NCBI GenBank assembly: GCA_027001995.1
Contig: JALTLO010000186.1
Location: forward strand, 1-26,615
Direction of reading: 5' to 3'
Length of the DNA stretch: 26,615 nt
Source of the DNA: Planctomycetota bacterium
Lineage (GTDB): Bacteria; Planctomycetota; GCA-002687715; DRQF01
The stretch's first letter is position 1. Each line of letters begins with the position of its first letter. The position numbers were made by a program, and so were the translations under genes. The notes below the pieces were generated by a model. It searched no databases. It was not told the origin of the DNA and saw only the letters and a list, made by a program, of their open reading frames with translations. Positions 6,908 to 25,193 of this stretch are shown here, one piece after another.

Positions 6908-6923
6908 TGGTATGTTCTTTGCA
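6908..6923 (+). promoter_or_regulatory. Sigma54 (RpoN) -24/-12 promoter
   Basis: TGGTAT-GTTCT-TTGCA: GG(6909-10)-N10-GC(6921-22), close to TGGCAC-N5-TTGCW; intergenic, ~110 nt before the ATG at 7031. Confidence 0.75.
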
Positions 6924-7030
6924 CTTCTCTTGGGGCCGGTCTTTCCCGGCCTATGTGCTGAGCCCTTTGCCCAGTACACATCCACCTAAAGATCATGGGA
7001 CCTACACTGGGGTCTCGGAATTATTGATTT

Positions 7031-9469
7031 ATGGCGAAAATCATCGTGAATGATGGAGATGGCGACAGCGAGTTCGCTCTTTCCGATCAGGGTGCCACCA
7101 TTGGCCGGGTCGCGAAGCACTGCGACATTGTCATCAAGGTCCCGGAGGCATCCCGGCAGCACTGTCGGCTGAAGATGGAAGGCTCATCCTGGTTCGTGGA
7201 AGATTTGGGTTCCAGCAATGGGACCCGTGTGAATGGCCGTAAGGTTACAACCTTCGAGCTTCAGGACGGCGACGAGATCATGGTTGGCAAAGCTCGTCTC
7301 CGTTTTCTTGAATCTGATGTGGTGGTGGACGAGATTTCCTTGGATGACGACGAGGAAATGGAGCTCGAGATTTCTCTTGAGGAAGACGCGTTCTTGCGCT
7401 TCCTCAATACGGATCGCCAAGGGCAAAAGGTGGATTTCGCTGGCCGTATGACCTTTGGCCGACGCTCGTCCAATTCCGTTCCTTTGAACGAAAAGGGAGT
7501 GTCTGGCAGCCATACGGAGTTCATACCCGAGGACGGTATCTGGATCTGCCGCGACTTAGGCAGCACAAATGGCACGTTTGTGAATGGTGAACCGGCTGTA
7601 GAAGCTCGCTTGGAACCTGGGGATCGTGTTCGCATCGGAACAGTCGAGTTCGTCTTTGGTGTGGGAGAAAACGAAGGCGACGCGGAGATGGCATCGACGG
7701 TCATCATGACTGAGGTGCCTTTGGAAGACGAGATTTTCGCCATCTCCGAAGCCAACATGAAGCGCAAACAGAAGGCCGCCACGTTCTTGTGGCTTGGTTT
7801 GATTGTTGCGGTGGGGGGCGCTGGTGGCTGGTGGCTGACTCAGGGTTCAACACGTTCAGCATCGGTCAAGACAATTGCGACGATCGAAGGGAATCAATTA
7901 GGTGTTGACGGAACATTTGAACCAAGAGATTTGGATGATGATTATCTGGTGACAGATTCGGATGCCGTTGATTTCGTCGAAACATCCAAGCGCAAGTCGT
8001 CGGGGGAAATGGGGCTTGAAGTTAAGGTCACTGACAGTGACGGTGATCATTACCTGTCATTTACCCACGAAATTGAGCACATATCTACCGCTGATCGTAT
8101 CGAAGTTGGCGGCAAGATACGTACATCTGGGGTGAGTGGTGGGGCTGTTGGTTTTTCTTTGATCTGGAAAGACGCCAACGAGCGAGTTCTCGGTTATTCT
8201 CATGCCAATGCACCTATGGGAGAAGGAAAGTTCGTTGAGGTACGGGGCATGTTCATGCCACCATACGGGACGGATCATGCCGCAGTTGCAATCGGCTTCC
8301 ATGATGCTCAAGGTAAGGCCTATGTCGATGACGTTTTTGCTCTTAGGTCACGTGGTGGCGGTGCCACTTTGACCGCTCATGGTCATGATCTCTTGTTGGA
8401 CGCTTCCGGTGCTCTTGTTGTGAGTCGCGATGGAACAGAAATTTTGGATCATGGTGGCTTCTATCAGGTTGAGGGCAAGACCCCCCATTTTCTGGGCCGC
8501 TTATTTGCCCCGGAGAGTATGGAAAGCAGCGATCAAGGGCGCTCTGTTTCTGGTTACTTGTCCTATGGCGCTGGCGGCAACGCATCGTTCTCCCTTGGGT
8601 TGGAAGCGAATGGTGTGGTTTGGCAGGGGATGTTCGCTGGTGACGCGCATGTCAAACTGGGGTTTGCAGTTGATGTGGGGGAAGGACTGGTGACGGTCGG
8701 CGCTGAAGGTGCCCTACGACACAATGAAGACTTTAGTCGAGACGGCGTGACGGAGCTTGTTGTGGCGACTGGGCCTCGAGCGCTTCGCCTCATCTTTGTT
8801 GAGCCCACAGCCATTGAAATGATTACCAAGGATCGCCGCAGCATCGTCCTCTTACCTTTGGGATCTGGAGCGGAAGGGGGTGTTGCATTCAATCACAAGA
8901 TCCAATTAAGTTTCACCGAAGAACTTAGCCAGGTGAACGCTCTCAGCGAAAAGGCCAGGAGCGCAGACAATGTTCAGAAACGCTATGGTGCCGCGATGGT
9001 TTATTACCGTGAAATCGTCAACCGCTTCTCATTTCAAAAATCTGCCAGCGAGAGCGCATCGCTTCGTTTGGGTGAGTTGGTCAAGAGAGCCGAGCGAGCC
9101 AAGGAACGGCTGACCAAAGCGGTCGATGATGTCCTTTTCTTTCGCACCTTTGATGCCAGTTATAAGCCTTTGAATGAAGAACTCTTGGGCTTGGTAAGCA
9201 GCTTTTCAGGTTCAGAATACGAAGAACAATTCGCCGCAATTCAGAAACGTTTGGATGATGCCTGGAAGGAATCCCAGGGATCACGCCGTTTGGCTTTGGC
9301 CAAGAATCACTTGGAACGAGGTCAGGATCTCATGGAGCCTGGGGCATCCACACCGGCCTTGGCCCGGGGATTCTTCTTGTCAGTGATTGAGCTGGCACCC
9401 GAATCCGAATTGGCTGAGAAAGCCAAAGCGGAATTGAAGAAAATTGAAACACTGTTGGGTGCAAAATGA
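7031..9469 (+). CDS. Tandem-FHA bitopic membrane protein with extracytoplasmic CBM4/9-like domain and helical/TPR-like C-terminus
   Basis: FHA1 (IGR..SRQH..DLGSSNGT) and FHA2 (FGR..SGSH..DLGSTNGT); acidic linkers; TM FLWLGLIVAVGGAGGWWL; 'NQL..DGTFE...SG..L.V...W.D...P.GT..A...AYVDDV' galactose-binding-like sandwich. Confidence 0.8.
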   Translation: MAKIIVNDGDGDSEFALSDQGATIGRVAKHCDIVIKVPEASRQHCRLKMEGSSWFVEDLGSSNGTRVNGRKVTTFELQDGDEIMVGKARLRFLESDVVVDEISLDDDEEMELEISLEEDAFLRFLNTDRQGQKVDFAGRMTFGRRSSNSVPLNEKGVSGSHTEFIPEDGIWICRDLGSTNGTFVNGEPAVEARLEPGDRVRIGTVEFVFGVGENEGDAEMASTVIMTEVPLEDEIFAISEANMKRKQKAATFLWLGLIVAVGGAGGWWLTQGSTRSASVKTIATIEGNQLGVDGTFEPRDLDDDYLVTDSDAVDFVETSKRKSSGEMGLEVKVTDSDGDHYLSFTHEIEHISTADRIEVGGKIRTSGVSGGAVGFSLIWKDANERVLGYSHANAPMGEGKFVEVRGMFMPPYGTDHAAVAIGFHDAQGKAYVDDVFALRSRGGGATLTAHGHDLLLDASGALVVSRDGTEILDHGGFYQVEGKTPHFLGRLFAPESMESSDQGRSVSGYLSYGAGGNASFSLGLEANGVVWQGMFAGDAHVKLGFAVDVGEGLVTVGAEGALRHNEDFSRDGVTELVVATGPRALRLIFVEPTAIEMITKDRRSIVLLPLGSGAEGGVAFNHKIQLSFTEELSQVNALSEKARSADNVQKRYGAAMVYYREIVNRFSFQKSASESASLRLGELVKRAERAKERLTKAVDDVLFFRTFDASYKPLNEELLGLVSSFSGSEYEEQFAAIQKRLDDAWKESQGSRRLALAKNHLERGQDLMEPGASTPALARGFFLSVIELAPESELAEKAKAELKKIETLLGAK

Positions 9470-9504
9470 GCCTCAACAAGAACATGTCTAACAAGGAGTA
9501 AAGC

Positions 9505-11187
9505 ATGGCTTTGCTTACCGGTATAGATCCGGGAACTTACAGTATCAAGGTTGTTCAAGGTCAGATGAATGGGCCTTTGTTCAAGTTGTTGAGAGTTGCC
9601 GAGTTTGAAGTGGACCCCTCAGGAGATGTAGAGTCGGACATTCTGCGGCTGTTGCAGTCTGAGTTACCCGGGCTGGGTTTGAAACCTGGGATCGTCCGGG
9701 CTGGGGCGACAGGGCGTGACCTGATGATACGCTATACATCCGTTCCCCCAGTGCCTTTGTGGCGGTTGCGCATGCTGATGGATTTTGAAGTCCAAGACAT
9801 GTCAACATCCAGTGGGGATGTATTGGTCGCTGACTACAATATTCTTCACTCTGAAGTTGATGATGGCGATGAGACGGTTTTGGTCTCTTTAGTCAAAAAT
9901 CACTTCTTGGAAGGCCGACTGAGGGCCATCAAGGGCGGTGGCTTTGAAGTCAAGGCAACGACTCCCAATTGTATCGCACTCTTCAACTCTTTTCTGTCCT
10001 TTGGTGAGATGGAAAGCGGGGAGTTCACTTTTCTGGTGGACATTGGCGATCAGAATATCGAGATGGCCATCATCCGGGACGGCGAGCTCTTGTTCGCCCG
10101 CAATGTGTCTGGCGGTGGTGAGATGTTCTCCAAGGCAATTGCCGAGAACTGGGGAGTTGGAGTTCCTAAGTCCCGGAGTTTGAAGCACGAATATGGCAAC
10201 GTGACTCCGAGAGGGCGGGCTTCCTACCAGTCGAGCCAAGAGGAGAAAGTGGCAAATGCCATCATGGGGGTCGCCGGACAACTTTCTGGCATGATCCAAT
10301 CGACTATGAATTTCGCCAAGAGTCAAAATGGCTTGCGCGACATGCAGATTGGTCGAGTCATGATCTCCGGTGGTGGAGCTTCCTTGACCGGCTTAGACAG
10401 CTATTTGGAGCAAAACCTCAACACGCCAGTGATGCGATTTATTCCAGATGCGGGCTTAGACCTCAGCGCTTTGCCTGCGGAGGAAGCCGAATTGTTTGAG
10501 GCTGACCCGGGGCGTTTTGCTTGTGCCTTGGGCTTGGCACGGATGTCTTCTGACGGCGATGCCTTCCTCATTGACATCATTCCGGAGGCGACGAAGAAAA
10601 AACGTCGCTTCATGTCTCGGCACATCTACATGATTGGCGCAGCTGTCGCCTCGGTGATCTTCCTTGGTATCTTGTGGGCCAGTCTTAGTGGCCAGGTCGC
10701 TGACTCCGCTAAAGAACGGCAAATGGCTGAACGGGAGAAACGGAAGTTGTCTGGGATACGCAAACGCTTTGACAACAAGTACGCGGACGCTCTTCTCATG
10801 AAAAAGAAGACCAACCGTTTGGCATGGGAAAGCCGTGGTGGCACTTTTCTGGTGCGGGGGCAGGGATTGGTGCAAAGATGTGCTCACCAATCCATCTGGA
10901 TCAAATCCATTGATGTTGGGGTTAAGAACCAATCTCCTCCGGGAAAAGAGAACGATCGCAAGTCATCCGTTCAAAAAATGTTGGTCACTGTCAAGGGGGA
11001 GATTCGCCAGTTGGGTGCAGGAGTGACCGCAAGCTTTAACCACTTTGTCGAAGGGCTGCGAAAAGACGAACACAATCCACTGGTGAATATCGTGAACAGC
11101 CCCATGGACGCGGGTGGCGAATTCGAGGTAACCATTGACTACGTCGGCTGGCCGAATGACGCGGACGGCGAAGGAGAGACAGAATGA
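9505..11187 (+). CDS. pilM: PilM actin-like alignment protein fused to PilN-like membrane/periplasmic part
   Basis: GIDPGTYSIKVV, LVDIGDQ, FARNVSGGG, ISGGGASLTGL and FACALGLA (PilM); then IDIIPE (PilN INLLP-like), a TM, a coiled coil and IWIKSI. AAGGAG RBS at 9493-9498. Confidence 0.88.
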   Translation: MALLTGIDPGTYSIKVVQGQMNGPLFKLLRVAEFEVDPSGDVESDILRLLQSELPGLGLKPGIVRAGATGRDLMIRYTSVPPVPLWRLRMLMDFEVQDMSTSSGDVLVADYNILHSEVDDGDETVLVSLVKNHFLEGRLRAIKGGGFEVKATTPNCIALFNSFLSFGEMESGEFTFLVDIGDQNIEMAIIRDGELLFARNVSGGGEMFSKAIAENWGVGVPKSRSLKHEYGNVTPRGRASYQSSQEEKVANAIMGVAGQLSGMIQSTMNFAKSQNGLRDMQIGRVMISGGGASLTGLDSYLEQNLNTPVMRFIPDAGLDLSALPAEEAELFEADPGRFACALGLARMSSDGDAFLIDIIPEATKKKRRFMSRHIYMIGAAVASVIFLGILWASLSGQVADSAKERQMAEREKRKLSGIRKRFDNKYADALLMKKKTNRLAWESRGGTFLVRGQGLVQRCAHQSIWIKSIDVGVKNQSPPGKENDRKSSVQKMLVTVKGEIRQLGAGVTASFNHFVEGLRKDEHNPLVNIVNSPMDAGGEFEVTIDYVGWPNDADGEGETE

Positions 11188-11999
11188 ACTTCGAAGAAGT
11201 TTGGCAAGAAAACAAATCCTTCATCCTCATGATCTTTGCTGGCTTGGTGGTGTTTGGAATCGGTTACTTGGTGATCAACAGCTCGTTCTCTGACGAAATC
11301 GCGGCCAACAAACGAGGTACGGCGGCAGCGAAACGACGAGCCAAGAAGCTACCCAGTGGAGCCATGAAACGGGTCGAACGTCGTTTGAACGAGATCGAAG
11401 AAAACCTCAATTTGCTTGAGAAGGAATTGGCCTACAAGCCAAGCCCGGGTTTCACCCTTGTGGGCGTGAATCGTTCTCCTGACATCTACTTCAATGAAAT
11501 GATTCAGCGTCTTTTGAAAGAGAGGGTCGAACCGGCTGCATCTCTCGATATTCGTGTTCCCGCTACCTTGGGGCTCAACGGCATTACTCCCAAGACGAGC
11601 GCTGAACGAGAATGGTACTTAAACGGTCTCGATGTCGTGAGCCGTTGTTGTTTGGCTGGGATGGCTGCGGGTGTTGAATCGATCGAACCGATTCGCATTG
11701 CAAAGATGTTGAAGAAGAGTCGATCTCGGCGCAACGAAACGACCCCTTACCTCAAACCTCTTGATGTGAAGATGACAGTCAAGGGCAAACCTGGCGCGAT
11801 CGACAACATGCTCCGCGACATCATGTTGCCTGGAGCCCGTTTGGCCATCGCCAAGGCGCGTATTACTTCATTGGACCAAGATGGGAAGAAACGACAGTCT
11901 TTTGTCGACGAGTCTCTTGTCGTTCTGGAGCTGACAGTACGGGCACTTCTGCTCGATCCGGAAGGAGAGCCCATGAGCCCCAAGTCTGGGCGGCTCTAG
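11184..11999 (+). CDS. PilO/GspM-like alignment protein
   Basis: ATGA overlap with pilM; N-terminal TM, coiled coil and C-terminal ferredoxin-like pattern (LDVKMTVKG....IDNML...I..ARI...LELTV); position directly after PilMN. Confidence 0.6.
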   Translation: MNFEEVWQENKSFILMIFAGLVVFGIGYLVINSSFSDEIAANKRGTAAAKRRAKKLPSGAMKRVERRLNEIEENLNLLEKELAYKPSPGFTLVGVNRSPDIYFNEMIQRLLKERVEPAASLDIRVPATLGLNGITPKTSAEREWYLNGLDVVSRCCLAGMAAGVESIEPIRIAKMLKKSRSRRNETTPYLKPLDVKMTVKGKPGAIDNMLRDIMLPGARLAIAKARITSLDQDGKKRQSFVDESLVVLELTVRALLLDPEGEPMSPKSGRL

Positions 12000-12006
12000 G
12001 AAGAGA

Positions 12007-15000
12007 ATGATGAAACTGAACAAAGAACAAATCGCATTCACTGTTGTCATTTTGATTGTTTCTTTTCTTGCTTACCAGGAGTTGGGGGGCAAGAAACCCG
12101 ACTACACGGGCAGCAAATGGAAAAGCAGAAGACGGGTTACGACAACCGTATCTGACAACGACCTGGTGACTATGAAATTCGCCCTCGTGTCACCTGATGA
12201 AGAAACATGGTTGGAGTCGGGGCGCAACATTTATCGTGCGCCTAAAGATCATGTCCCCATGCCACCCTTGAGCCTCTCAGCTCCACCTCGTTCCATGGTG
12301 GTGACGAGCAAACCTCAATCGAATCCCGGACTGGATCCCTATCATCGTCTGGATTCGGTTGGCCCGGTGGTTCCTGTGGAAGGTGTTGAATTGTCCCCAA
12401 GAACTGTCGCCCAAGGGGGGGAAGAGGCTGCGGATGATCTGAGCAATGAAGAAGAGGGGGAAGATCCGTCCATGATCCCTGTGGAAGGGTTGGGGGGCGA
12501 GGATGAAGTGGCCGATGAGCTGGCTGCATTGGAGCAGAAACTAAGCGAGGTGGGTAAGGCAGTTCAAGAAGAGAAGAAGCCCGAAAACTCTAAGAAGGCT
12601 AAACGAAGGGTTAAGAGTATTCTGAACTTGCGTGAGCGTTTGGCTCAAGACGCGGAAGCCAAAATTGCCAAAGAGCGCGCGGCCCGTCAGAAGTTGAAAG
12701 ATGAGGCTGAACGTCGCCGCCGTCTTGACAAGATTCACTGGCTGACTGGAGAAATTTGGTACGGAACGATCGAAAATGATCGTGTTGCTCCCAAGGGCAG
12801 CGATAGTCTGGACAAGTACGCCATCAAACTGCGAATTGATGAGATTCGACAAAAGACAACAGCGAGCGCCTCCGAGCTGCAAGCTATGTTGAGTGATCGT
12901 TTGCTTGAGATTGAGTTTAAGCGGTGGACGAAGCAGAAGTGGAGTGCCAAAAATAAGGTCTCGCCGGTTAACGTGGCATCGATCGAATTCGCAGAAGGCG
13001 AAACATCGGGGGCGTACACCGTGGATCAATTTGAGTTGGATCGACGTCTCACACCAACATCTCAGATCGAACGTCATATGGCCATGGTCAAGAAGTTGGG
13101 AACTATCGGTGAATTCGGTTTGGCGAAACAGCATTTGGAACGAATCTTGAAGGAAGGCCATGAAACTCGGGCTGTCTATCAAGCTCTCGCTTTGGCTGCT
13201 AATCGCGACTTTGACTACAACGTTGAACTCATGGCTGTTCGTGATGGTCTGGCCAAGTTTCCTGAGGATGCGATCTTGATGGCCAGTGCCGCCGACCTCT
13301 ACAGTCGTTTGGGCTTGGATAAACTGGCGACTGAAATGTTTGAGAAAGCAGAGGCATTGGCGCCCAGGAATGCGGTGGTCAATGCTCGGCATGGCAGGCA
13401 TCTGTTTCACGAAAGGGAAGGGGGCAGTGCCAAGCTAACCATCGCTAAGAAACTGCTGGAGAAAGCTTCTTCTGGCCGATTCGAAATCGCCAGCGAGAAG
13501 CTTCTTGTTGTTCTCGACCTGGGTGAAGCCAAACTCGCCACCGGTGATATCCCTGGTGCCAAACGGGCATTCGAGAGGGTTAATATCAGTCAACCTGGTA
13601 ACGTCCGGGCCTTGATCGGTTTGGCTGCCGTGTCTTTGGCCAAGGGCTCCATTGAAGAAGCCCGTGGCTTCCTGAAAGACGCCCTCGAGAGAGATCCTGA
13701 ATCAGGAAGCATTTACTACAACTTGGCTCTCTGTGCCCTGCATGAAGGCAAGTGGGAGGAAGCACGGGATCAATTCTACGATGCCATGGATGCCGATCCC
13801 TTCTTGACCGCTAAATCGAATTGTGGTTTGGGTTTCTTGTACGAGAGCATTGGCAAGATTGGAGAGGCTCAAGCCGCCTATGCCGCGGCCTTGGTTGCCG
13901 ATCCTGAGGATGGGGAAGTGCTCTACTGGAATGGCCGTGGGTTCCTTCTGGTGGGAGACTATGAACAAGCTTTTACATCTCTCAGATCTGCCCTTGTCCG
14001 CTTGCCGAATCAGTTCGACATCTTGGCTGCTCTTTCTGATGCCAGTTTCCATTTGCTCAAGTTTGACGATGCCTTGCGGTATATTGATGCTGCCATGGCC
14101 TTGAGGCCGAAATCTCCAGGGTTGCTGATCAGAAAAGCTCAGACCCTTGTGCGTTTGCGGCGTTTCATCGATGCAAAAAAATGCTTGGATGCGTCGAAAC
14201 AACAAGAAGCGAGTGACGAAGTCGAGATGAGCTTGGCTTATTACTACTACTTGGACGGCAACCACGAAGAAGCCTTGAAGCGTTTTAGAAGTGTTGAGCG
14301 CACTTTGGATCGAAGAGATGAAAGTCCACTAGCAAGCTATGTCCGGAGATACGCCAAAGAAATCGCCGACAATCTTTCTAAACGGGTTTGGCAAGATCAC
14401 TTCAATCGTGTTTCAACTGGACGAGACTTGTTACGCGGCTGGCGATCCTATGCTCCTTTGAGTGGGATTTCTGTGAATCTGCTGAATAACCATGTGAGTT
14501 TCTCTGGTACCCAAAAGGCGTCCGATGTGCCCTCGTGCATTTTCCAGCGTCGTAGTGGCCGGGAGTTCGTTTCCTTCGAAGCCGGAATCACAGTCATGCC
14601 AGACTCAGAATCTATCTGTGGCGTGGGGTTGTTCACTTTTCGTAAGAATACCGGTGATCAAAATTCCTTTGTGGACGTTGATTCCGGCGGTATCGCCTAT
14701 GATGGTTTGATCGTAGCGAAGAATCGCGAAGGCCGCTTGGCCTATCGCGAGGTGACGCGCTATCAGTTGGGCCGCTGGAAGAAAATTGATCTTCCATGGC
14801 CCCCAGCAGTGGACGGGAAAGCTCAGCAGATCGTTTTGGGTATCGCCAGCGAAGACGGCAAGAAGGGGACGTTTGCTATCTTGGTGAACGGTAATCCGGT
14901 TGTCACAGGTTTAGAAATTCGGGGCCTTCGCCGCACCACAAAAGACTTGCAGCTTTGGGCTTTCACTCAAGCTGAAATTGATCGCCGTATCGACATGAAA

Positions 15001-16679: not shown

Positions 16680-19600
16680 GAGAAGACATCCAAACGATGG
16701 GGCGTCCCAACCTCGAAGCCGTGGACGTGTCTTTCATGGAACACAGAAGCGATTCTGGCATCGCCCTCATCGTCGTGATGAGTGTTTTGGCTATGCTCAT
16801 TGTGATTGCCACTCCATTCTTGCTTCAGTCACGGAAAGACCATGCGAGTGCCGTTACCGTTTCTGAACGACACCGGGCCAGGCAAGTGGCGAATAGTGCT
16901 CTCGAATGGGCCAAGATTGGTTTACTGGACACCCACCAGGGCGTCGAATCTCAGGGGCGGGGAAAAGGTACACCCTATTGGGATGGCCCGGAAGAATTCC
17001 GCATCGACGAACATCCGAAATCTCTCAACGATTTGATCGGTGTCGAAGGTCCCCGTTTCATGGGAGACCCCAAAGGTGACATGTGGGCCATCAAGGTGCG
17101 GGATGAAAGCGGCTTCATTAACGCGAACACAGCGCCCCCGTTTTTTTGGTCGAGTTTGGTGGGACGTACGGTTGTCACCCAGGAAGTGGAGCCCAACTCT
17201 GGCTCTATTGAAGTGGAGTCGACAGCAGGTTTTCCTCCCACCAAAGGTGAAATTGTTGTCGGCGGTCGGGTTTTCTCCTATCGCAAAGCAAAGGGCTCAT
17301 CTTTCACGGGGGTTCCGATCAAATCGGCTATTCCCCAAGGTGCCATCGTCATGACTAAGATGGCATGGGACCTTGCCATGTTCGGACAAAAGGTCAAGCG
17401 AGCTGGCTATGGGCTTACTGAGCTGGCTTCCATCACGGAACTCAAAGACGTGGCTTCCTACGGTAACCAAGCCCTATCGGAAGAGAAGCTTTCAGCCATC
17501 TTGGGCCCCATGACTCATGTGGGTTTTCGCGAGAACGCCGGTGGCTGGTTAGCGCCTCAACGCATCACAGCAGAGCTTGACCCAGACAGCTTCGAGCCAG
17601 AAAGTGATGGGCAACCGGTTCGGGTGAGTAACCCAGATTTCTTCAATCCGGGGACAGTGGTGAAGATCACCGACGGCCAATCGACTGAGTACAACATTGT
17701 GCGTTATTCTCGTCGCACGGGGAGTGGTGGAGTTCTTTCCCTTCTCAATCAAGTTTCTCGGGGCTACGCCTACGAGACAGCAACGATTTCTGCGGAGATG
17801 CGCCACCCTGTTAATATCAACAACTGCTCGAAGCGCGTGCTCACACTTCTTCTTGACGGCATTGATTATGCCCCTCGGTGGCGGAAGCACTCCAATGAGG
17901 AAGATCGAGTTTCGTCCAGCTTGGCGGCCAATGTTGCTGAGGTACTTATCAAGAATCGTCCCATTCGAGGAACCGAGCATCTCGTCGATTTATTGGCAGC
18001 TCTTTTTCATGTGAAGGCTGGTAGCTTCACCGAAGGAGAATCCCAGATCACCGCGGACATGGTGGCTGTCCCTGGATTTGACAATGTTTCGATGACGGCG
18101 AACCATGCCTTGGGTATTGTGCAGAATGCCCTCAATGCCAACCATCGTTCACTCATCAATTCGACGATGCCTTTTTCTTATGTTAGCCACGACTATTTTA
18201 CTGTTGAGACAGCTTCCAGCGTGAATGACGGAAGCGGCTCAGAGCTGGCCCGGTTTCACATGCGGGAGACCTTTCGTAGCGCCCCCTCTCAGGAATTGCG
18301 CCACCGATTACAATCTCAGGCAGATTTTGAGCAGTCGATCGTGGCCGGGCGGGCTGGGAAGAACATTGAAACCTATCCCAACTTGATGACTTTTTTTACC
18401 GCTGAAACCGCCAAACCCGAGCAGCGCCTATTTCGCTATCTCCACAATTTTGATGACCCATCAAAGATTGGTTTTCGACCATCCCGCGTTGAAGGTGATG
18501 TACGTTTGCAACCAGCTCGACTCTATGGAGGCTGGACGGAACATTTTGATGGCAACTTGTCCGGACCTGTGGCTCGAGGCTTAAGGACGACGAAGAGAAC
18601 CACCGCCAGAACTGAGTTTATCTTTCCGGAAGGTCTGCCACTCAATACTGGTCCTTACCGTTTGGACATGACTGTTCGCGGGCAGACCTTGGGCACTGGC
18701 CAGAAGGCCACGGCTATGGCTGATCGCAATGGCCTCAATCCTTTCGTCGTTGAGTTCTTCATGAAGCCCGCCAGTTTCAGTGGGGGACAGGCTCTCTTCT
18801 CAGCCTTGGGGCGGGAGCCAACTGCTGATTTTATTCGCGCTTGGTATGATTCTTCTCAGAGGGTTTTTCGTTTTCAGGTGCACGATATCGCCTTCGATGA
18901 CCTGCGGGCACGGGTGCCCAGTGTTGCTGAAGTGAGTTGGAGTCCGCCCCAAAGTTCGATTGAGGATGACACCTGGTATCACTTCTCTCTTCATGTCACG
19001 GGGACGAAACCCGGGGAGATGAGCCTTCATGTTGATGGCTTTAAGAGGGGGAAAACAAGGTTCCAAACAAAGTTGGCATCTAGCCTTTCTGAGAGTGCCA
19101 CATCCTTCACTGTTGAGGATGCCTCAGATTGGCCAGACCAGGGGGTTTTCTTGGTGGGAACGGAAGTTGTGAATGCCACGAGGCAAGGCAACAATTTTAC
19201 TATTTTCCAGAATCCCAACAGCGGCCTTTTGCCTTTGGGACGTGGAGCGCGTGGGTCGCGGGTCTTGTCTCACAGTGCCGGTGAGCGCGTGACCCTCTTT
19301 GGCTATTCCAATGTTTTGCGGCGAACCGGCGTGGCTGGGGGAGAGGTCTTGCCCATTGGCGGGGCTGGTTTAGCTGCCGAGTTGGCGCCTTTCTCTTCTT
19401 TGGGAATTGGTGATGATGGGACGATGGTGGAAACCTACACTTCGCCAGGCGCCCAGGGCTCCCCACCTATGGCCACAAGTTATGAAGTGCTCGACCTTGG
19501 GACTGTGAATGCTATTGAGCTTGCACCTTTACCGACGCAGAACCTAAATTCGGCAGTGCGGACTTTTCAGACAAGTGGCGGTTATGCCATTGTCGCCGGG

Positions 19601-21817
19601 TTGGTGTATCCGAGTACGCCGTCCGCATCCAACGTACAACCGGTGAATCTGCAAAGAGCTTGTGTTCTCATCCGCTACAGTGGCCGGAATGGCAACAGGT
19701 TGACAGGGGTCTCTTTGGCCCGGCAAAGTTTCAACGCAGATCTGGTAGACGGTCAGTTCTTGATGAGGTCTGGCAGTAGTACGCAGGCACAGGGAGCCAG
19801 GGACCCCAAATTCTATTGCTCCACCCCGCAGAAGGTCATCACGCGGGATCCCAGTGGGGGATCCACTGCCCCTCTTCTGGCCCAAGTTTTTCCCATCTCT
19901 GTGCGCTTGACTGGGAATGTGGGCTACAAGGGACCTGAGGTCGATCAGAATGGCATCTTGTTTCCCGAATTCATTCAATTGGGAACACCCAATTTGGCCC
20001 CCGATCTCAGAAACTTCTCCAATCACGCGATTGAGTGGGTGGCTTACTACGGTGTTGATCGGACAAGCAGTGATTTCTTGTGCCACGACGAAGTGTCATT
20101 GCTTAACGCCGTGAATATCCTGTTAGATACTGCCGGACTCAACGTCAACACGAATACGAATTTGGCTAACGCGAGCGGATTTGCCCTGCCTTCCATACTC
20201 CAGGCCGGTGCCCAATTGCGTTGGCGAGGCCAAGCTCAGACCTTGCAGTTTGGTTGGACAGATATCAATAATTCAGCTCACACCCACAATGCCGGCAGTC
20301 TTGCTATTCCTACATTTCGAGTGGCGAATGTTGGTGGCAGGGCACCTGGGTACGGCGATGCGGTTTCTCTTCTCACCGCAGGGAATCAGAACCGAGAAAT
20401 TCAATTCATATCTTGGGCAGCAGATGTATTGCCCCCGGCCTCTTGGCCTTCAAATCGGCCAGTCCAACTCGATACTCGCGCTTGTTTCACTGCCAATGTG
20501 CGCTCCCAGCTCAATCAAATTGCCTTACCCGCGGTCAGTGGAAGTAACTTGGCCAATGGTCCTGCGGTTTGGGATCGACGGCGCTATACCAGAATTGCCA
20601 AGTTTCCCTCTGGGGAGCTTCCTCTCATCACCAGTCAAGGGGATAGTCAAATAGGCGGTGATCTTGTGGGCGGTATTCGATCCTCTGGTATGTTGGATGA
20701 GATTCGTGTGCGCGCGGTTCAGCGCAATCGTTACGTCTTGTGGGATGACAACCGGGCGGACTACCTTAATTCGCCGCCGAATCCTTATCCTCTGGGCGTG
20801 TCAACCAATGCCACGGAAATCCCTATTGTCAGCGCACTTTGGGTGCCAGCTCGTGACCCTCTGAATGCGTCGATAGCGAACTTCTGGTTGCCTGATGGGC
20901 AACAGCTTGACACCGCAGACCCACTGATTGAATTGGGCGCCGATGCTGGTTTGGTGATGATTGACGATGAGATTATCGCGTTTCGCAGTGTGGCCCCTGG
21001 CCCCGGCAATGCTGGACAGGTTTTGTCGGATTGCCTGCGGGGTTTCATGAACACCATTCCCAGTGAGCACTCCTTCGGGGCTCCCATTGTCTTTCTTGAT
21101 TTTAGGGCCACCAGCAAGCTATTGCAGTCTACCTCCCGAGAGAGCTTCCGTTTTCAGATCGCCGACGCTCAAGATTTTGGCGTTAGTGATGGTAATGGCA
21201 GAGGTGGTGGGACCGTCCTGATTGGCAATGAGATGATTCACTTCACGTCAGCGGCGGGCAATGTTTTGCAGATGCCAAGGAAAATCGATCGTCAGTCCGG
21301 AGAGACCGTCGGTATCTTCAGAGCTCGTTATGGCACGCGTACTCAAAGCCATGGTTCAGATGACATCGTTCTGGATATGCCGTTTCGATTCTGGGATCGC
21401 TATGTTCCTCAATCTGACGATCCTGAGTTGAGCTTCTATCAATTCGGTGTGAATGAGCCACGAGCCTTCTTCAAGCGCATATCCTGGCATCATCGTTCAG
21501 AGAAATCACGCCTGGGAATGAAAGTGCTGCTCCGCTTCGACCCCAAAGTTCCATGGGATACAGACCCAGCGAATTCCAATGGTGCCTTGCTCTTGTTGGA
21601 TGCTAATTCGGGACAAGGTCAAGATATCTTGAGCCAACACTTGCTCAACAGGCAGGCGCGAGGGCTGGAAGCTCGGGTGTTCTTCGTTTATGAGGCAAAC
21701 GCTTTTGACCCGGTGACTTTGCGAAGCAATGATTGGAAAGAAACTCCTCAGCTTCTTGATATTGAGTTGCGTTACTTGGCGGCACCCTATGTTATCTCTC
21801 GGGAGACGCTGAAATGA
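16676..21817 (+). CDS. Giant GspK/PilX-like minor pilin (1713 aa) with LamG-like and repeated beta modules
   Basis: G|IALIVVMSVL lacks Glu5, as in GspK/PilX; IKVRDESGFINANTA, PVNINNCS..VL..LL and SHDYFTV are GspK motifs; long C-terminal extension. Alternative start ATG at 16736. Confidence 0.8.
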   Translation: MREDIQTMGRPNLEAVDVSFMEHRSDSGIALIVVMSVLAMLIVIATPFLLQSRKDHASAVTVSERHRARQVANSALEWAKIGLLDTHQGVESQGRGKGTPYWDGPEEFRIDEHPKSLNDLIGVEGPRFMGDPKGDMWAIKVRDESGFINANTAPPFFWSSLVGRTVVTQEVEPNSGSIEVESTAGFPPTKGEIVVGGRVFSYRKAKGSSFTGVPIKSAIPQGAIVMTKMAWDLAMFGQKVKRAGYGLTELASITELKDVASYGNQALSEEKLSAILGPMTHVGFRENAGGWLAPQRITAELDPDSFEPESDGQPVRVSNPDFFNPGTVVKITDGQSTEYNIVRYSRRTGSGGVLSLLNQVSRGYAYETATISAEMRHPVNINNCSKRVLTLLLDGIDYAPRWRKHSNEEDRVSSSLAANVAEVLIKNRPIRGTEHLVDLLAALFHVKAGSFTEGESQITADMVAVPGFDNVSMTANHALGIVQNALNANHRSLINSTMPFSYVSHDYFTVETASSVNDGSGSELARFHMRETFRSAPSQELRHRLQSQADFEQSIVAGRAGKNIETYPNLMTFFTAETAKPEQRLFRYLHNFDDPSKIGFRPSRVEGDVRLQPARLYGGWTEHFDGNLSGPVARGLRTTKRTTARTEFIFPEGLPLNTGPYRLDMTVRGQTLGTGQKATAMADRNGLNPFVVEFFMKPASFSGGQALFSALGREPTADFIRAWYDSSQRVFRFQVHDIAFDDLRARVPSVAEVSWSPPQSSIEDDTWYHFSLHVTGTKPGEMSLHVDGFKRGKTRFQTKLASSLSESATSFTVEDASDWPDQGVFLVGTEVVNATRQGNNFTIFQNPNSGLLPLGRGARGSRVLSHSAGERVTLFGYSNVLRRTGVAGGEVLPIGGAGLAAELAPFSSLGIGDDGTMVETYTSPGAQGSPPMATSYEVLDLGTVNAIELAPLPTQNLNSAVRTFQTSGGYAIVAGLVYPSTPSASNVQPVNLQRACVLIRYSGRNGNRLTGVSLARQSFNADLVDGQFLMRSGSSTQAQGARDPKFYCSTPQKVITRDPSGGSTAPLLAQVFPISVRLTGNVGYKGPEVDQNGILFPEFIQLGTPNLAPDLRNFSNHAIEWVAYYGVDRTSSDFLCHDEVSLLNAVNILLDTAGLNVNTNTNLANASGFALPSILQAGAQLRWRGQAQTLQFGWTDINNSAHTHNAGSLAIPTFRVANVGGRAPGYGDAVSLLTAGNQNREIQFISWAADVLPPASWPSNRPVQLDTRACFTANVRSQLNQIALPAVSGSNLANGPAVWDRRRYTRIAKFPSGELPLITSQGDSQIGGDLVGGIRSSGMLDEIRVRAVQRNRYVLWDDNRADYLNSPPNPYPLGVSTNATEIPIVSALWVPARDPLNASIANFWLPDGQQLDTADPLIELGADAGLVMIDDEIIAFRSVAPGPGNAGQVLSDCLRGFMNTIPSEHSFGAPIVFLDFRATSKLLQSTSRESFRFQIADAQDFGVSDGNGRGGGTVLIGNEMIHFTSAAGNVLQMPRKIDRQSGETVGIFRARYGTRTQSHGSDDIVLDMPFRFWDRYVPQSDDPELSFYQFGVNEPRAFFKRISWHHRSEKSRLGMKVLLRFDPKVPWDTDPANSNGALLLLDANSGQGQDILSQHLLNRQARGLEARVFFVYEANAFDPVTLRSNDWKETPQLLDIELRYLAAPYVISRETLK

Positions 21818-23100
21818 CGCAGTCGAGACAACGGGGACTCACCCTCATTGAACTCATGACAGCCATGGCCATTTTTGCCATGTTAGGCGGTTTTCTTTTT
21901 ACCTTGATGCGAGACTCTCTTGGGATCTACCGAAAATCCCGGTCGTCTGGTGAAATCTACGACAAGTATGATCAGGTCTCCCAGGCTCTGCAAGATGATC
22001 TGACCTGTGTCGCTATTGGCGATCCAGAGGGCCCAGGTATCAAACTAGAGTTCTTACAAAGTCGCGATCGTCAGTACGTCCCGTCAAAGGACGTGACTTT
22101 GAGCAAGGAAGCTTTGGCAACCGCGGAGCGAGCTTCCGGTGACCCTCGCTCTTTTCTCTTACGTTTTGTCCGTAGTTTTCCTGGCGGTGAAATGAATGAC
22201 ACTGTTGGGCGATTTGCTGGTACTTATCCAGGTGCCAGTCAGTCGATTGACGGAGATGCGGACCTCGCGGAAAGCCGCCATGGGGCGATCATTAAGGCTC
22301 AGCTGAAAGAGGGAAAGCCGAGCAAATCGGATAATGATCAAAAAACTCCAGGTCTGAAGCCTCCGGGTAATCTCATGGAGGTGATGTATTTTTGTGAGAA
22401 TGGTCCTTATGACGAACCTGGAACATTCACCCTCTATCGCGCTTTTCGTTCTCCGGTGGGAGGCTCTGGCTCTTTCTTTGATGACGCCACGATCAAGGCT
22501 ATGACACCGGAGTGGATCGAACGATACGCGAAGCCTGTAGTTTCAGGGCTTGTCTATTTTGGTGCAGTGTTGTGGGGCCAAGACACAAAACAATGGGATA
22601 TCGAAAGAGTCTTGAATGGAGATGGAATTGGAGGTCGTGTAAGCACGGGTCTTTCCGAGCTCTGGTGGGACAGCCGACGGGCTCGCTACCCTAACTTCTC
22701 CATGCACATAGGCGACAAGTCAGCCCTCTTCTACGAAGACGACGTTTTTCCTCGCCGGATTCAATTTTTGATGACTTTTGTTCAAGGAGGCAAGGTCTCT
22801 CCTGATGCCCGTCTTCTCGGTTCGCTCAGGGGAACATCCCGCAACCTGACTTTGGACAACGGCAAGATCTTCGATAACAGCGGTGGAGGTGCTGTGCCGA
22901 CTCATCTTTTGATTGACAACGAATGGATGGAAGTTTCTAGCGGGTCTGGAAGTCGGTTGACGGTGGTTCGGGGATCCAGGCGTACGGCCCCGGCCAAACA
23001 TGAGACTGGGAGTGCCGTACATGTGGGGCGCTCTTTCAAACTGACAGTGGATATCCCTGCTTACCGATTTAGTTTTGACAGCCAGGGAGGTGGGCGATGA
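21814..23100 (+). CDS. GspJ/PulJ/PilW-like minor pilin
   Basis: G|LTLIELMTAMAIFAML; 'LQDDL'; 'EVMYF....LYR'; 'FPRRIQF' near the C-terminus; ATGA overlap with the upstream gene. Confidence 0.8.
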   Translation: MTQSRQRGLTLIELMTAMAIFAMLGGFLFTLMRDSLGIYRKSRSSGEIYDKYDQVSQALQDDLTCVAIGDPEGPGIKLEFLQSRDRQYVPSKDVTLSKEALATAERASGDPRSFLLRFVRSFPGGEMNDTVGRFAGTYPGASQSIDGDADLAESRHGAIIKAQLKEGKPSKSDNDQKTPGLKPPGNLMEVMYFCENGPYDEPGTFTLYRAFRSPVGGSGSFFDDATIKAMTPEWIERYAKPVVSGLVYFGAVLWGQDTKQWDIERVLNGDGIGGRVSTGLSELWWDSRRARYPNFSMHIGDKSALFYEDDVFPRRIQFLMTFVQGGKVSPDARLLGSLRGTSRNLTLDNGKIFDNSGGGAVPTHLLIDNEWMEVSSGSGSRLTVVRGSRRTAPAKHETGSAVHVGRSFKLTVDIPAYRFSFDSQGGGR

Positions 23101-23570
23101 ACACATCTCGATCAAGATTCGCTCAGGGCGGATTTACTTTGGCGGAAATTCTCGTGGCCATGAGTGTCTTGCTCATCGGCATGGCGGGGATTATCAGCTT
23201 GTTTACGGCAGGTCTCAACTTGGAGCGACGAAGCAGTTTGGCCATTGATACGGCGGTTGCTCTCAGGGATGTTGAACCTTTGGTTCGGGCGGAGACAGTT
23301 CGGCGTTTGGCATCGGGAGATAAAGAGAACGATCTCGATATTCTTCGCAGGCCAATTCCTGGTTGGGTTGGTTTGGATTACACCGCCAAGATTTTGCCCA
23401 TGGAAGGAAATGAGTCCAACGAGGGCTACGTCATGAAGATTACGGTAATCCCCAGAGGAGCCCCTGAGGACAAGGGGATTAGCTATGGCTATTTGCCTCT
23501 GCGTTTCGGGCCAACCTATGAAGAAATGGTGCGGGCCGCGTCGCAAGAGACCCTCACCAAGAAGAAATAA
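23097..23570 (+). CDS. GspI/PilV-like minor pilin
   Basis: G|FTLAEILVAMSVLLIGMAGIISLF; short (157 aa); ATGA overlap. Confidence 0.8.
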   Translation: MNTSRSRFAQGGFTLAEILVAMSVLLIGMAGIISLFTAGLNLERRSSLAIDTAVALRDVEPLVRAETVRRLASGDKENDLDILRRPIPGWVGLDYTAKILPMEGNESNEGYVMKITVIPRGAPEDKGISYGYLPLRFGPTYEEMVRAASQETLTKKK

Positions 23571-23571
23571 G

Positions 23572-23587: not shown

Positions 23588-23605
23588 GTTGAAAAGGAGC
23601 AGAGC

Positions 23606-25072
23606 ATGAAGCAGCTCACCACAGCATTCTTAGTTTTGATTATGGCAGGCATTCTGACTGTAGAGTCGAAGGCTGAAATTGTCTTCCTTAAAGACGGTCG
23701 TCTTCTACACGTCAAGGTTATCAATGGCGATGAAGCTGGGATTCAAGTTGAGAGACTCGACAATCACGGCAAGTTGTTCATTCGCTGGGCACTCTTGAGG
23801 GAAGAAGACCGACTGCGCCTACGCATTCGTTTTGGACTAGAGGATGATAACTCTGGGGCCGATCTCCTCATTGATGGTCACCGCGTTTTTGTGGTCCGAG
23901 GGGACTACTATGACGGTCTGATTGAAGACCAAGATCAGAGTGTCGTAAATCTGCGCCGCCAAGATGGCATGATGCATCTTCGGAGGGATGCAGTGAGGAG
24001 AATCGAAGAACGCAAAGTCAGCATCTTCGAGGTCTATACTCCAGAAGAACTCTACAAGCAAAAGCTCGATGAGTTCTTGCCCGAAGATGATGATGTCGTT
24101 GGTCAAATGGAGTTGGCAAAGTGGGCTACAAAAGTTGGTCTCTATTCTGAAGCCTTGATTCACTATGCGAAGATCGTTGAAGCGGATCCTGAATACAAGA
24201 AGGACTTTGTCAGCAATCAAGTCAAACGGCTAAAGATTCTGGACAAGAACAAGACTGTTCGTGACGCGATTCGCACCGCGGAGAAAGAGGGTTTGGCTCA
24301 CAAGTACGTCGAGTGCATGGCTCACTTTGAAGAGATTCTTGCTTCCGCCAAACTCGATAAAATTACACGCAAAGATGTTCTGAAGAAGATGTTGCGTTTC
24401 AAGAAACGTCGCTGGAAGTACTATTCTCAATTGATTGTGCGGGACTATCACCGTGAAGTCGTGAAGCGCATCAAGAAGATGGCATCAAGCAAAGAAATCC
24501 GAGCGCGAGATAAGGACAAGCGCCTGACTCTCAGTTCGGCTATGAACTTCGTTCGCGGCCAACTTCATAAAGAGATTGTGACGTATCTCGCGGAGACCCA
24601 TGAACTCGACCCTAAGAAGGAGGTTGAGGAGATGTGGAAGAATCGCAAGACGCGCATCAAGAGAACCGCGACCTATGGCTCGGGGACATTTGTCGTCGAA
24701 GGCAAGAAAGGTAGCCAGGGCGGAGCCGGTGCCCAAAACCGGAGAGTCCAGGAAGCGCTCGACCGCATGCGTCGTCAGCGGGGTGGTCGGCGTGGAAATG
24801 CAGCGCCAACCCAGCAGACAGCTCAACCCAAGTTGGTGAGCAAAGAAGGATGGTGGCAGGGAGCGAATTCCAGTCAGCGCTCATTCTTCCTGCGCGCCTA
24901 TTATGCTGAGAAAAGTGGTCACATGGAGGTGATCTCGACTTCCTGGCGGGTGTGCCCCGAATGTGGTGGCACAGGGACCATCAAGAAGCTGGGAGCTCAA
25001 GGGGGGCTGGTCAAAGTAACCTGTCCACGGAGTCATGGCCTGAAAGGTGACAAAATGATCTATTATCGTTAA
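23606..25072 (+). CDS. Secreted hypothetical protein with C-terminal DnaJ-type Zn-finger-like motif
   Basis: AAGGAG RBS; Sec signal MKQLTTAFLVLIMAGILTVESKA|EI; 'IVFLKDGR' beta motif; TPR-like helix pair; CPECGGTG...CPRSHG at the C-terminus. Confidence 0.75.
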   Translation: MKQLTTAFLVLIMAGILTVESKAEIVFLKDGRLLHVKVINGDEAGIQVERLDNHGKLFIRWALLREEDRLRLRIRFGLEDDNSGADLLIDGHRVFVVRGDYYDGLIEDQDQSVVNLRRQDGMMHLRRDAVRRIEERKVSIFEVYTPEELYKQKLDEFLPEDDDVVGQMELAKWATKVGLYSEALIHYAKIVEADPEYKKDFVSNQVKRLKILDKNKTVRDAIRTAEKEGLAHKYVECMAHFEEILASAKLDKITRKDVLKKMLRFKKRRWKYYSQLIVRDYHREVVKRIKKMASSKEIRARDKDKRLTLSSAMNFVRGQLHKEIVTYLAETHELDPKKEVEEMWKNRKTRIKRTATYGSGTFVVEGKKGSQGGAGAQNRRVQEALDRMRRQRGGRRGNAAPTQQTAQPKLVSKEGWWQGANSSQRSFFLRAYYAEKSGHMEVISTSWRVCPECGGTGTIKKLGAQGGLVKVTCPRSHGLKGDKMIYYR

Positions 25073-25156
25073 ATCTCGATAATTTGTGGACAAGATTGGA
25101 TGGGGGAAGCCGGAGAATAATGAAGAGGTCCCCCCTCTGTCCAAGTTCTTTTTTTT

Positions 25157-25193
25157 CGTACGGTGTGTATGCGCACCGTACGTTTTTCGTTTT
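25157..25193 (+). terminator. Probable intrinsic terminator
   Basis: CGTACGGTGTG-TATG-CGCACCGTACG (11-bp stem, one G-U pair) followed by TTTTTCGTTTT. Confidence 0.65.

Follow-up and report, generated by a model that had tools for sequence, protein, structure and literature searches.

A conserved planctomycete gene block for one half of a type IV pilus-like machine, with a giant tip pilin of predicted lectin-like and phage-tail-like domains

A planctomycete contig carries a run of genes in which T2SS-type pilins stand beside type IVa-like alignment proteins, which raises the question of what kind of filament they encode and what it would do. The original prediction saw in this block an operon for an undescribed type IV filament subtype, a candidate lectin-tipped fibre, running from a promoter to a terminator. 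Here we analyse the window (i.e. the whole stretch of 26,615 nt), whose features are:

2..1984, + strand: 3' part of a TMTC/PMT-like membrane glycosyltransferase-TPR gene (TPR matches), with its 5' part on contig C162
2845..4818, + strand: FHA-GAF-AAA-HTH sigma54 activator (bEBP; Pfam)
6797..6834, + strand: conserved non-coding block, candidate upstream activator site (alignment)
6908..6923, + strand: sigma54-type -24/-12 site, TGGTAT-N5-TTGCA (motif search)
7031..9469, + strand: FHA-FHA-TM-CBM(4/9-like)-beta domain-helical protein, 812 aa (Pfam: two FHA domains)
9505..11187, + strand: PilM-PilN fusion (PilM-N), 560 aa (profile matches; TM 374-392)
11184..11999, + strand: PilO/GspM-like protein, 271 aa (weak profile matches; N-terminal TM)
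12007..15045, + strand: membrane-anchored TPR protein, 1,012 aa (TPR matches; alignment)
15058..15705, + strand: GspG-type pilin G with C-terminal calcium loop, 215 aa (T2SSG above Pfam cut-off)
15702..16679, + strand: H-type minor pilin with LamG/ConA domain, 325 aa (N_methyl; Laminin_G_3)
16676..21817, + strand: K-type tip pilin, 1,713 aa, about 184 kDa mature (AlphaFold models; fold comparison; PHROG)
21814..23100, + strand: J-type minor pilin with one phage-tail-like barrel, 428 aa (N_methyl)
23097..23570, + strand: I-type minor pilin, 157 aa (N_methyl; weak PilV and GspI matches)
23606..25072, + strand: 'Zn gene', for a secreted protein outside known families, 488 aa, with a TPR-like segment and Cys pairs at the C-terminus (no Pfam)
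25157..25190, + strand: intrinsic-terminator-like hairpin (stem 25157-25182, 11 pairs plus T-run)
25204..26235, + strand: PpiC/SurA-type PPIase (Rotamase; probable start 25204)

Extent, conservation and control of the block

All ten predicted open reading frames (7031-25072) were confirmed on the + strand and are as tightly coupled as had been proposed, with five of the nine junctions being 4-nt overlaps (four ATGA, one GTGA) and the remaining four gaps of 7-35 nt. Across 30 loci anchored on PilM the order of genes was always preserved and all ten were present in 24, the FHA, TPR and Zn genes thus being syntenic with the pilins; the lack of such synteny, which would have refuted the original prediction, was not observed. 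A PPIase gene (likely a folding chaperone) follows the Zn gene in 25 of the 30 loci, usually directly, and a hairpin with T-run comparable to the one found here was seen in 1 of 19 compared loci (the same-genus locus), so that it is apparently genus-specific. Since the PPIase gene usually lies directly 3' of the Zn gene and the hairpin is hardly conserved, we consider the conserved unit to comprise eleven genes: the predicted terminator exists as a hairpin, but the ten-gene boundary that it was taken to mark does not hold. In the synteny comparison the Zn and PPIase genes were not detected in several lineages and, judged by gene content, look accessory. The protein encoded by the former (Atlas clusters in which Planctomycetota is the commonest phylum, without a common Pfam) has conserved cysteines; the second Cys pair of the putative Zn-finger here reads C-P-R-S-H.

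A -24/-12 promoter had been proposed for the operon. The site is present, although the pattern used has 22 matches genome-wide (a single site being weak on its own) and the strict TGGCAC consensus, with one mismatch allowed, misses it at 6908; the proposal is supported by the motif GG-N8-TTGC, which in 12 of 29 related loci precedes the FHA gene by 30-220 nt, versus 5.3% of random windows and 1-4 of 24-31 loci for five internal genes. A search for rpoN found none in this 92%-complete assembly, and the gene was present in all nine other genomes tested, both same-genus genomes among them. The bEBP gene, which is directly upstream of the block and on the same strand in 14/30 loci and has a variant activator loop (GAYSGL, from sequence), likely encodes the regulator of the operon, and the non-coding block (alignable in all three relatives compared) would be an upstream activator site.

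The block is widely conserved in mostly uncultured planctomycetes. The K family was found in 246 of 401 sampled Planctomycetota genomes (sizes 2-12 Mb), among which full-length K was not found in two large classes. As K was not found in the class inferred to be that of Planctopirus and Gemmata, the dextran-binding fibres of these genera (PMC5394234) are probably not the K system.

Pilins and alignment proteins of mixed affinity

In G, H, J and I the class III signal peptide has E5, and each of these pilins matches Pfam N_methyl above cut-off. G is likely the major pilin: its top PDB match is PulG (5wda), calcium loop included, with D200, D207 and D208 conserved at 90% or more, and it scores 62.7 bits against TIGR01710 (cut-off 88.85, hence below it). 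By these matches G is not of PilA type, its PilA matches being restricted to its N-terminal part. H matches Laminin_G_3 (31.8 bits, cut-off 27.6), and J the tip attachment protein of phage JBD30 (8rk3_o, E=0.0017), the profile of the J barrel detecting three copies in K.

K has a GspK-type motif (G|IAL) without E5, and its AlphaFold models (pLDDT 86.6, pTM 0.82; pLDDT 87.8, pTM 0.86) predict a GspK core with inserted barrels, followed by a compact head in which a discontinuous ConA/LamG domain is joined by more barrels. The modelled core, which shows the GspK fold with its inserted alpha-domain (NF037980 being below cut-off), compares with GspK (3ci0_K: VIA Z 13.7, 238 aligned, rmsd 3.7) and XcpX (Z 13.1), and the lectin-like domain with the ConA fold (Z 12.9, 171 aligned, rmsd 3.1), its fold relatives being ConA, CBM40 and pentraxin; neurexin, laminin and pentraxin rows are also present in the same comparison. 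ConA, LamG and pentraxin folds also serve as protein-binding or structural domains elsewhere. The barrels are akin to phage depolymerase and tail-tip domains (7w1c Z 11.2; 8vjh Z 9.2; also 8rk3), and K matches phage tail PHROG 1101 (E=1.7e-7). Modelled as a sphere, K would measure at least 7.5 nm in diameter, near the limit of a secretin pore. Lectin-like folds, as had been predicted, are thus supported in H (Pfam), K (predicted structure) and the FHA protein (CBM).

Two comparable systems come from outside the phylum. In the available part of its description, S. sanguinis PilC is a tip pilin with a ConA module and a proven glycan-binding lectin (PMC9934059); the PilA-PilB-PilC system shares with the block a ConA-like module grafted on a tip pilin, but it is monoderm and its PilC is of 53 kDa, whereas the ConA domain of K is discontinuous and surrounded by barrels. 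The Verru_Chthon cassette A-D (TIGR02600, 02598, 02599, 02596) is a PVC set of four pilins, one of them very large and K-like (1,296-position model); 6/29 K members match the cassette models weakly. By these models the block does not belong to the cassette (16.9-20.7 bits, far below cut-off, on the N-terminal pilin helices alone).

On the side of the alignment complex, PilM-N is by its sequence type IVa-like, matching M. xanthus PilM (5e-42) and PilN (9.5e-7); its 17 PDB matches are to PilM, MreB, FtsA and PilN, with GspL absent among them, and actin-fold ATP motifs are retained (in 15-23 of 31 sequences by strict pattern). The TIGR01175 match is below cut-off, as is that to the Amuc_1101 family (NF045709: 130 bits, cut-off 650). 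The PilO-like protein weakly matches PilO of M. xanthus (E=0.01) and P. aeruginosa (0.25) and Amuc_1100 (0.47). The TPR protein occupies the PilP/GspC gene position and has no PilP family match; a conserved RNxF motif after its TM resembles the PilP motif, and the look-alikes of its C-terminal beta-sandwich domain (from alignment) are at lead level only: clusters of sialidase-like CBM and of GH16-like proteins and, at E=0.007, a galectin-domain fibre protein. Of 30 sequences of the FHA protein, 29 contain a phosphothreonine-binding motif and 21 have it twice, a hydrophobic segment spans 249-267, and the CBM matches 4d0q (E=4e-6) and 2w5f (6e-6), CBM_4_9 being detected in 5/30 members. By prediction this CBM is periplasmic, as is the TPR protein's C-terminal domain.

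These matches confirm the predicted mixture of a T4P-type PilM with T2SS-type G (PulG-like) and K (GspK-fold). Fusion of PilM to PilN is also the architecture of GspL. The individual parts are not new, since both a PilM-N fusion (Akkermansia MUL2) and lectin tip pilins (S. sanguinis PilC) have precedents; a literature search found neither a described subtype with such an architecture nor the combination of PilM-N fusion and lectin-type tip pilins in print, and we take the block for a previously undescribed variant in the type IV filament superfamily.

Machinery encoded outside the block

Of the components that characterise this superfamily, the block supplies class III pilins, while ATPase, platform, secretin and peptidase genes are absent from it and present only in trans. 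What it encodes is not a whole filament system but one half of a type IV pilus-like machine, i.e. the pilins and an inner-membrane alignment complex. Genome-wide we found 10 T2SSE-family matches, four PilC/GspF genes, six secretins above cut-off, one PilD and four PilT-like ATPases, with an orphan PilB-PilT-PilB-PilC locus on C25, a separate GspD-E-F-G-H-I-J locus on C141 and a canonical PilMNO-PilQ-PilT-PilC-PilA set on C204.

The glycosyltransferase-TPR gene is split between C162 and the window (aa 96-341 of its orthologue in genome G017 correspond to the end of C162, aa 384-1037 to window positions 11-1927; the G054 orthologue has a weak PMT_2 match, below cut-off), which connects the window to an upstream secretin-ExbBD cluster; judged from this split gene, the cluster probably lies directly upstream of the block. 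Of 16 genomes with both on the same contig, 6 (six families) have a pair of secretins, a second set of PilM-N and an ExbB/ExbD/ExbD motor no farther than 30 kb from the block, the secretin cluster and block being contiguous and co-directional in G017 and G099; in the other ten the distance to the secretins ranges from 77 kb to 3.2 Mb, and in 22 of 38 genomes they are on different contigs. The linkage may represent an inherited neighbourhood. In G232 a secretin lies directly 5' of a PilM-N of the cassette clade, and ExbB, two ExbD and TPR proteins stand between paired secretins in 8/9 cassette-bearing genomes where the pair was read (pairs on contigs of their own included). For the linked secretins the scores to MshL/Amuc_1098 exceed those to GspD. 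As weaker matches to their family also occur in 17/20 cassette-negative genomes, and a C25-type PilC in 59/59 genomes, co-occurrence singles out neither partner.

The block's PilM-N forms its own clade (99/98), separate from a secretin-adjacent paralogue on C66 (148 bits to the Amuc_1101 family, below the cut-off of 650). Akkermansia MUL2 (Amuc_1098-1102), for which the available part of its description gives a PilM, a pilin and a proposed role in glycan attachment and uptake (PMC13174399), is similar in its PVC-superphylum PilM-like fusion adjoining a PilO-like gene and in the family to which the linked secretins score. It differs in that the block's PilM-N falls far under the Amuc_1101 cut-off, the C66 paralogue being the closer counterpart, and, as described there, MUL2 has neither an H-I-J-K cassette nor an FHA protein.

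Proposed function and alternatives

We tentatively favour, at somewhat under even chances, a short retractile capture-and-uptake device whose giant tip would bind polysaccharides or cell-surface glycans and be retracted through secretins probably encoded just upstream. By analogy with T2SS and type IVa biology, the single PilD would process the pilins, and K-I-J-H would nucleate a tip underneath which G polymerises; a PilB/PilC motor with PilT encoded elsewhere (the C25 locus being the best candidate) would extend and retract the filament. Linkage suggests that PilM-N, PilO and the PilP-like TPR linker may align it with one of the two paralogous secretins, and that the ExbB/ExbD/ExbD set may energise or gate import. 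As the folds suggest, polymer may be bound by the ConA and barrel domains of K, H and J and held by the periplasmic CBM of the FHA protein. The sigma54 promoter, the adjacent FHA-bearing activator and the cytoplasmic FHA domains would, as conservation supports, place it under Ser/Thr-phosphorylation control. Against such a device speak the calcium loop of G, the bulk of K relative to a secretin pore, the protein-binding and structural uses of its lectin-like folds elsewhere, the distant secretins of many genomes and the co-occurrence data, which single out no partner. A bolder version, to which we give about one chance in four, takes a supercluster of ~45 kb as a lineage-defining macromolecule importer of non-model planctomycetes, a 'T2SS in reverse' under sigma54/phosphothreonine control, in which a retractile pseudopilus with the phage-tail-like, receptor-binding K tip, twin secretins and ExbB/ExbD/ExbD proton motor would bring intact polysaccharides or prey-surface polymers to the periplasm.

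A specialised T2SS, in which G would be a short periplasmic endopilus and the H-I-J-K tip would dock large folded proteins and push them out via the linked secretin, is rather unlikely. The block shares with the T2SS (GspC-M; GspK-I-J tip, 3ci0; PulG endopilus) its calcium-loop pilin, the H, I, J and K set with a core superposing on GspK and XcpX, and a PilM-N plus PilO layout equal to GspL/GspM, to which the coupled PPIase gene and the bulky K head may be added. Yet its K, which carries ConA and barrel domains, is ~5x longer, extra domains are also found in H and J, the actin-fold domain is PilM-type with ATP motifs kept and not assignable to GspL, and FHA-CBM, TPR, Zn and PPIase partners occur without GspC, GspD, GspE or GspF. 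GspE and GspF are also absent from the flanks of all 30 loci (as is GspD, save for one divergent secretin), the genome already has the C141 system, the linked secretins are nearer MshL/Amuc_1098 by score, and a conserved substrate gene was not recognised.

Somewhat less probable, and in line with the original prediction, is a long pilus on the cell surface by which the cell would adhere or make contact with prey or partner cells, K being the receptor-binding tip. Family searches including PHROG recognised neither a toxin nor an effector gene in the block, which leaves the proposed predation without direct support, and presence in 246/401 genomes suggests a general rather than predator-specific role. 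In common with the type IVa pilus (PilM/N/O/P/Q, PilB/T/C, FimU-PilV-PilW-PilX, PilY1) there are an ATP-motif PilM, PilN- and PilO-like domains, motor and secretin at other loci and PilT in the genome; the differences are the fused PilM and PilN, the GspG-like major pilin, the 1,012-aa TPR protein at the PilP position, and adhesin-like mass fused to K in place of a recognised PilY1 (no Pfam or NCBIfam match to the PilY1/PilC beta-propeller among the 15 window proteins). The FHA and TPR partners are reminiscent of the myxobacterial Kil system, and the tip combines phage receptor-binding-like barrels with a lectin fold; elsewhere, modular tip pilins act as adhesins (PMC8179133, PMC9934059). Against it, the calcium loop of G is, in the available part of PMC13081927, a feature of periplasmic T2SS endopili, the FHA-protein CBM and TPR C-terminal domain are predicted periplasmic, and the C204 set can supply long pili.

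An envelope or motility machine, with the lectin-like folds as protein scaffolds and the secretins, ExbB/ExbD/ExbD and TPR proteins coupling the proton gradient to surface movement or membrane shaping, is improbable: the ExbBD-TPR set between secretins (8/9 genomes) recalls the AglRQS gliding motors and the FHA-TM protein weakly scores to gliding protein GltG, but that match covers the FHA part alone, ExbBD is tied to the block by neighbourhood only, and ligand contact is the better fit for an H-I-J-K tip that is complete and conserved while its accessory domains vary.

Taken together, these observations extend type IV filament biology by a hybrid that pairs T2SS-type pilins with alignment proteins of type IVa kind, and by a GspK-fold pilin with predicted discontinuous ConA/LamG domain and phage-tail-like barrels that is double the length of the largest modular pilin (860 residues) named in the available part of an InterPro survey (PMC8179133) and has domains in common with phage tail tips. 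The lectin-like domains of the K head, H and the FHA protein are soluble and thus amenable to culture-free study. The macromolecule uptake system of planctomycetes has been described as still uncharacterised (PMC5394234), and the block would offer a defined, conserved candidate uptake machine for many mostly uncultured classes beyond the two best-sampled ones.

Conservation and boundaries of the gene block

The source genome (5.2 Mb, 92% complete) carries in the window, as originally predicted, ten tightly coupled genes running in the same direction (FHA, PilM-N, PilO-like, TPR, the pilin genes G, H, K, J and I, and Zn), to which a PPIase gene adds an eleventh member. All 23 genomes of the class have a PilM-N orthologue, as do, at E<=1e-40, 192 of 401 genomes of the phylum (some few may be paralogues). 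Among 30 PilM-anchored loci, picked for long contigs, the gene order was kept in all 30, which excludes chance or artefact as the origin of the block; all ten genes were present in 24 and all eleven in 23, and among the incomplete loci one stops at a contig end and two (in the genomes G099 and G288) have K elsewhere. A further 19 genomes, chosen in many cases for a weak or absent PilM match, showed the full FHA-to-I order in six, runs from PilM-N or PilO onward in four and split or partial arrangements in nine, with the Zn gene detected in only one. The N-terminal profile of K (the giant tip pilin, 1,713 aa) had matches in 246 of 401 genomes, a count that includes the profile's own source genomes, and yielded 489 clusters at 50% identity (E<=1e-30). 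Named K homologues came from Planctomycetota MAGs, and the J homologues include one MAG labelled Hyphomicrobiaceae and one labelled 'bacterium'. In two large classes, of 151 and 101 genomes, the same profile gave only three and nine matches respectively, all within its first 141 positions. As two tested genomes of the first class contain 44-55 DUF1559 genes, an abundance that marks Planctomycetia, we take it to be that class; the second is presumably Phycisphaerae.

Departures from the common arrangement were also observed. In two families K stands alone outside the operon (L108-L111; G288, G249, G391 and G118), and in the two loci with ORFs listed it follows a gene that appears to resemble an anti-sigma factor. 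One operon (L051-L052, G272) has two tandem K paralogues, and other genomes of its family have 4-6 K profile matches each. In a rearranged locus (L091, G232), G-H-K-J-I is succeeded by a two-component pair and a secretin, which is directly followed by PilM-N of the block's clade, then PilO and a short protein similar to the N-terminus of the TPR protein.

The following elements flank the ten genes in the window:
4901-6080: Rpn/YhgA-like gene, an insertion 3' of the activator gene and 5' of the promoter
6081-6860: no gene assigned; contig C1 holds a partial copy at 82% identity; belongs to the Rpn/YhgA-like insertion
6908-6923, + strand: -24/-12 promoter site
25084-25145: second hairpin with a T-run, in tandem ahead of the main terminator-like hairpin and before the PPIase gene

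The proposed -24/-12 promoter holds as a site whose upstream position is conserved in relatives, its sequence alone being unremarkable (22 pattern matches genome-wide). Of 29 related loci, 12 have the motif GG-N8-TTGC ahead of the FHA gene, versus a 5.3% background; an FHA-GAF sigma54 activator gene lies directly 5' of the block in 14 of 30, and nine of these 14 have the motif (kin not being independent in any of these counts). A strict sigma54 consensus scan missed the 6908 site and was uninformative, and counts of sigma70 promoters (8 vs 11.4 in shuffles) and terminators (27 vs 21.6) stayed at shuffle level. The hairpin 3' of the Zn gene, predicted as the terminator, is real but apparently genus-specific. 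While rpoN was not found in this 92%-complete assembly, its presence in nine of nine other genomes tested, together with 19 activator-like ORFs here, indicates that an assembly gap is likely. Related copies or fragments of the Rpn/YhgA-like gene, at least seven in all, occur in other parts of the genome; the gene has entered the stretch ahead of both the promoter and a second conserved block, and the gap that follows the activator gene measures 2,212 nt here versus a few hundred in relatives.

Encoded proteins and relation to described systems

The PilM-N protein matched type IVa PilM (5e-42) and PilN, not GspL, in profile searches, and in its tree (built without reference sequences) a 99/98 branch separates 27 sequences of the block from six further ones, four of them MUL2-like paralogues. 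The PilO assignment is weak (E=0.01), and the TPR protein is membrane-anchored and occupies the gene position of PilP or GspC; searches with its C-terminal domain returned repeat artefacts and lead-level Atlas matches only. G, the likely major pilin, has PulG as its nearest match and retains the calcium loop, a calcium site being presented as an endopilus feature in PMC13081927; the minor pilin H carries a LamG domain. The FHA protein combines canonical FHA domains, one transmembrane segment and a CBM4/9-like domain, the latter predicted by topology to be periplasmic. The Zn protein belongs to no known family (only generic TPR matches were found) and, being missing in several lineages, was rejected as an essential PilY1 equivalent.

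The structure of K was predicted in two parts with good confidence, and the usable domain matches came from VIA-align. In these models, the stretch 57-539 can be laid over GspK (Z 13.7) and XcpX (Z 13.1). Matches to the barrel inserted at 285-376 include a domain of a phage capsule lyase (Z 11.2), a tail tube (Z 10.7) and a tail tip (Z 9.2); since it also matches EF-Tu-type barrels (Z 6-8), this fold is a common one. Within the modelled head (560-1713, pTM 0.86) lies a discontinuous domain of ConA/CBM40/pentraxin fold (best Z 12.9), and K, taken as a sphere, would measure at least 7.5 nm across. At the sequence level, phage tail matches to the barrels of K and J include PHROG 1101 (E=1.7e-7) and the tip protein of JBD30 (E=0.011 and 0.0017), with a GTA Rcc01698_C match at the cut-off in one homologue. 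Foldseek searches with the multi-domain K models gave low-TM matches only, GspK not among them, and sequence-profile PDB searches with K21-560 and K560-1713 gave nothing below E=0.01.

Tested for membership, the block failed for the T2SS, the type IVa pilus, the Akkermansia locus MUL2 and the Verru_Chthon cassette (a four-pilin cassette of the PVC group); from its genes and folds it is predicted to operate as a cross between the first two. MUL2 is described as a PilM protein plus pilin conserved in Akkermansiaceae and proposed for glycan attachment, and MUL1 is likened to Sus (PMC13174399); the ConA-module pilin PilC is a lectin, and modular pilins are widespread, the most extreme one named having 860 residues (PMC9934059, PMC8179133). 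The block was rejected as the probable source of the dextran-binding fibres that PMC5394234 reports in Planctopirus and Gemmata. The string 'planctomycet' is absent from the main text of PMC6668835; Saltatorellota are stated to encode type IV pili in the main-text portions of bioRxiv 10.1101/817700, which do not describe the block (its supplementary gene tables could list the genes). The literature searched, main texts mostly outside the subscription journals, contained no description of the operon. We consider the block real and widely conserved, a variant within the type IV filament superfamily that has apparently gone undescribed; its ingredients have precedent, and their combination and the size of K, as far as we found, do not.

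Secretins and motor genes outside the block

The block encodes no ATPase, platform, secretin or peptidase, and a self-contained system was rejected. Elsewhere the genome holds a T2SS (C141), a type IVa set (C204), a GspE/F/D-like locus (C179), a MUL2-like PilM-N/O/P/secretin set (C66) and a secretin paralogue (C162). An orphan PilB-PilT-PilB-PilC locus was also observed (L064, C25:17962-23523), both PilB of which have the MshEN c-di-GMP-binding motif above cut-off; co-occurrence designates no motor for the block, as C25-type PilC is present in 59 of 59 genomes.

C66-type secretins are paired (<15 kb apart) in 24 of 38 block-bearing genomes. Secretin and block lie on different contigs in 22 of the 38, and in the 16 genomes where they share one they are <=30 kb apart in six and far apart in ten; weaker relatives of this secretin occur in 17 of 20 genomes lacking the block. 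The interval between the paired secretins holds a pair of TPR genes, ExbB and two ExbD, often joined by a sulfatase. Behind the secretin pair come HAD, GT2, AsnB and TMTC-like genes, and these are followed by the activator and the FHA gene; in G017 and G099 the whole run is unbroken and reads in one direction. The link between secretins and block is one of neighbourhood. In our genome, split genes give the order C66, reversed C162, window, so that the outer-membrane partners likely lie just beyond the window's 5' end; no contig-end overlaps were found among C66, C162 and C186 (the window's contig, of which it covers positions 1-26615), and the order comes from the split genes. The twin-secretin locus is itself conserved (L063, L069 and L117-L126; own C66 and C162, G017, G053, G054, G099 and G265), with a sulfatase-TPR gene among those between the secretins. 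GT2, AsnB-like and TMTC/PMT-like genes were observed between this locus and the block (window 2-1984; L118, L122, L124 and L126), hinting at glycosylation of machine subunits.

Predicted function

On gene content, synteny and predicted folds, we tentatively favour a short retractile filament for capture and uptake. An export piston of T2SS type, for which the GspG/GspK pilins and the bulk of K argue, appears unlikely. A long pilus for adhesion or predation, uses raised in the original prediction, is somewhat more doubtful still, and a role in motility or the envelope seems improbable. The capture-and-uptake reading draws on the type IVa-like base, on PilT being encoded in the genome, on the domains of a binding type carried by three of the tip pilins, on the CBM predicted to be periplasmic and on the ExbBD set beside the secretins. 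The twin-secretin locus that houses this set deserves study as a separate system.
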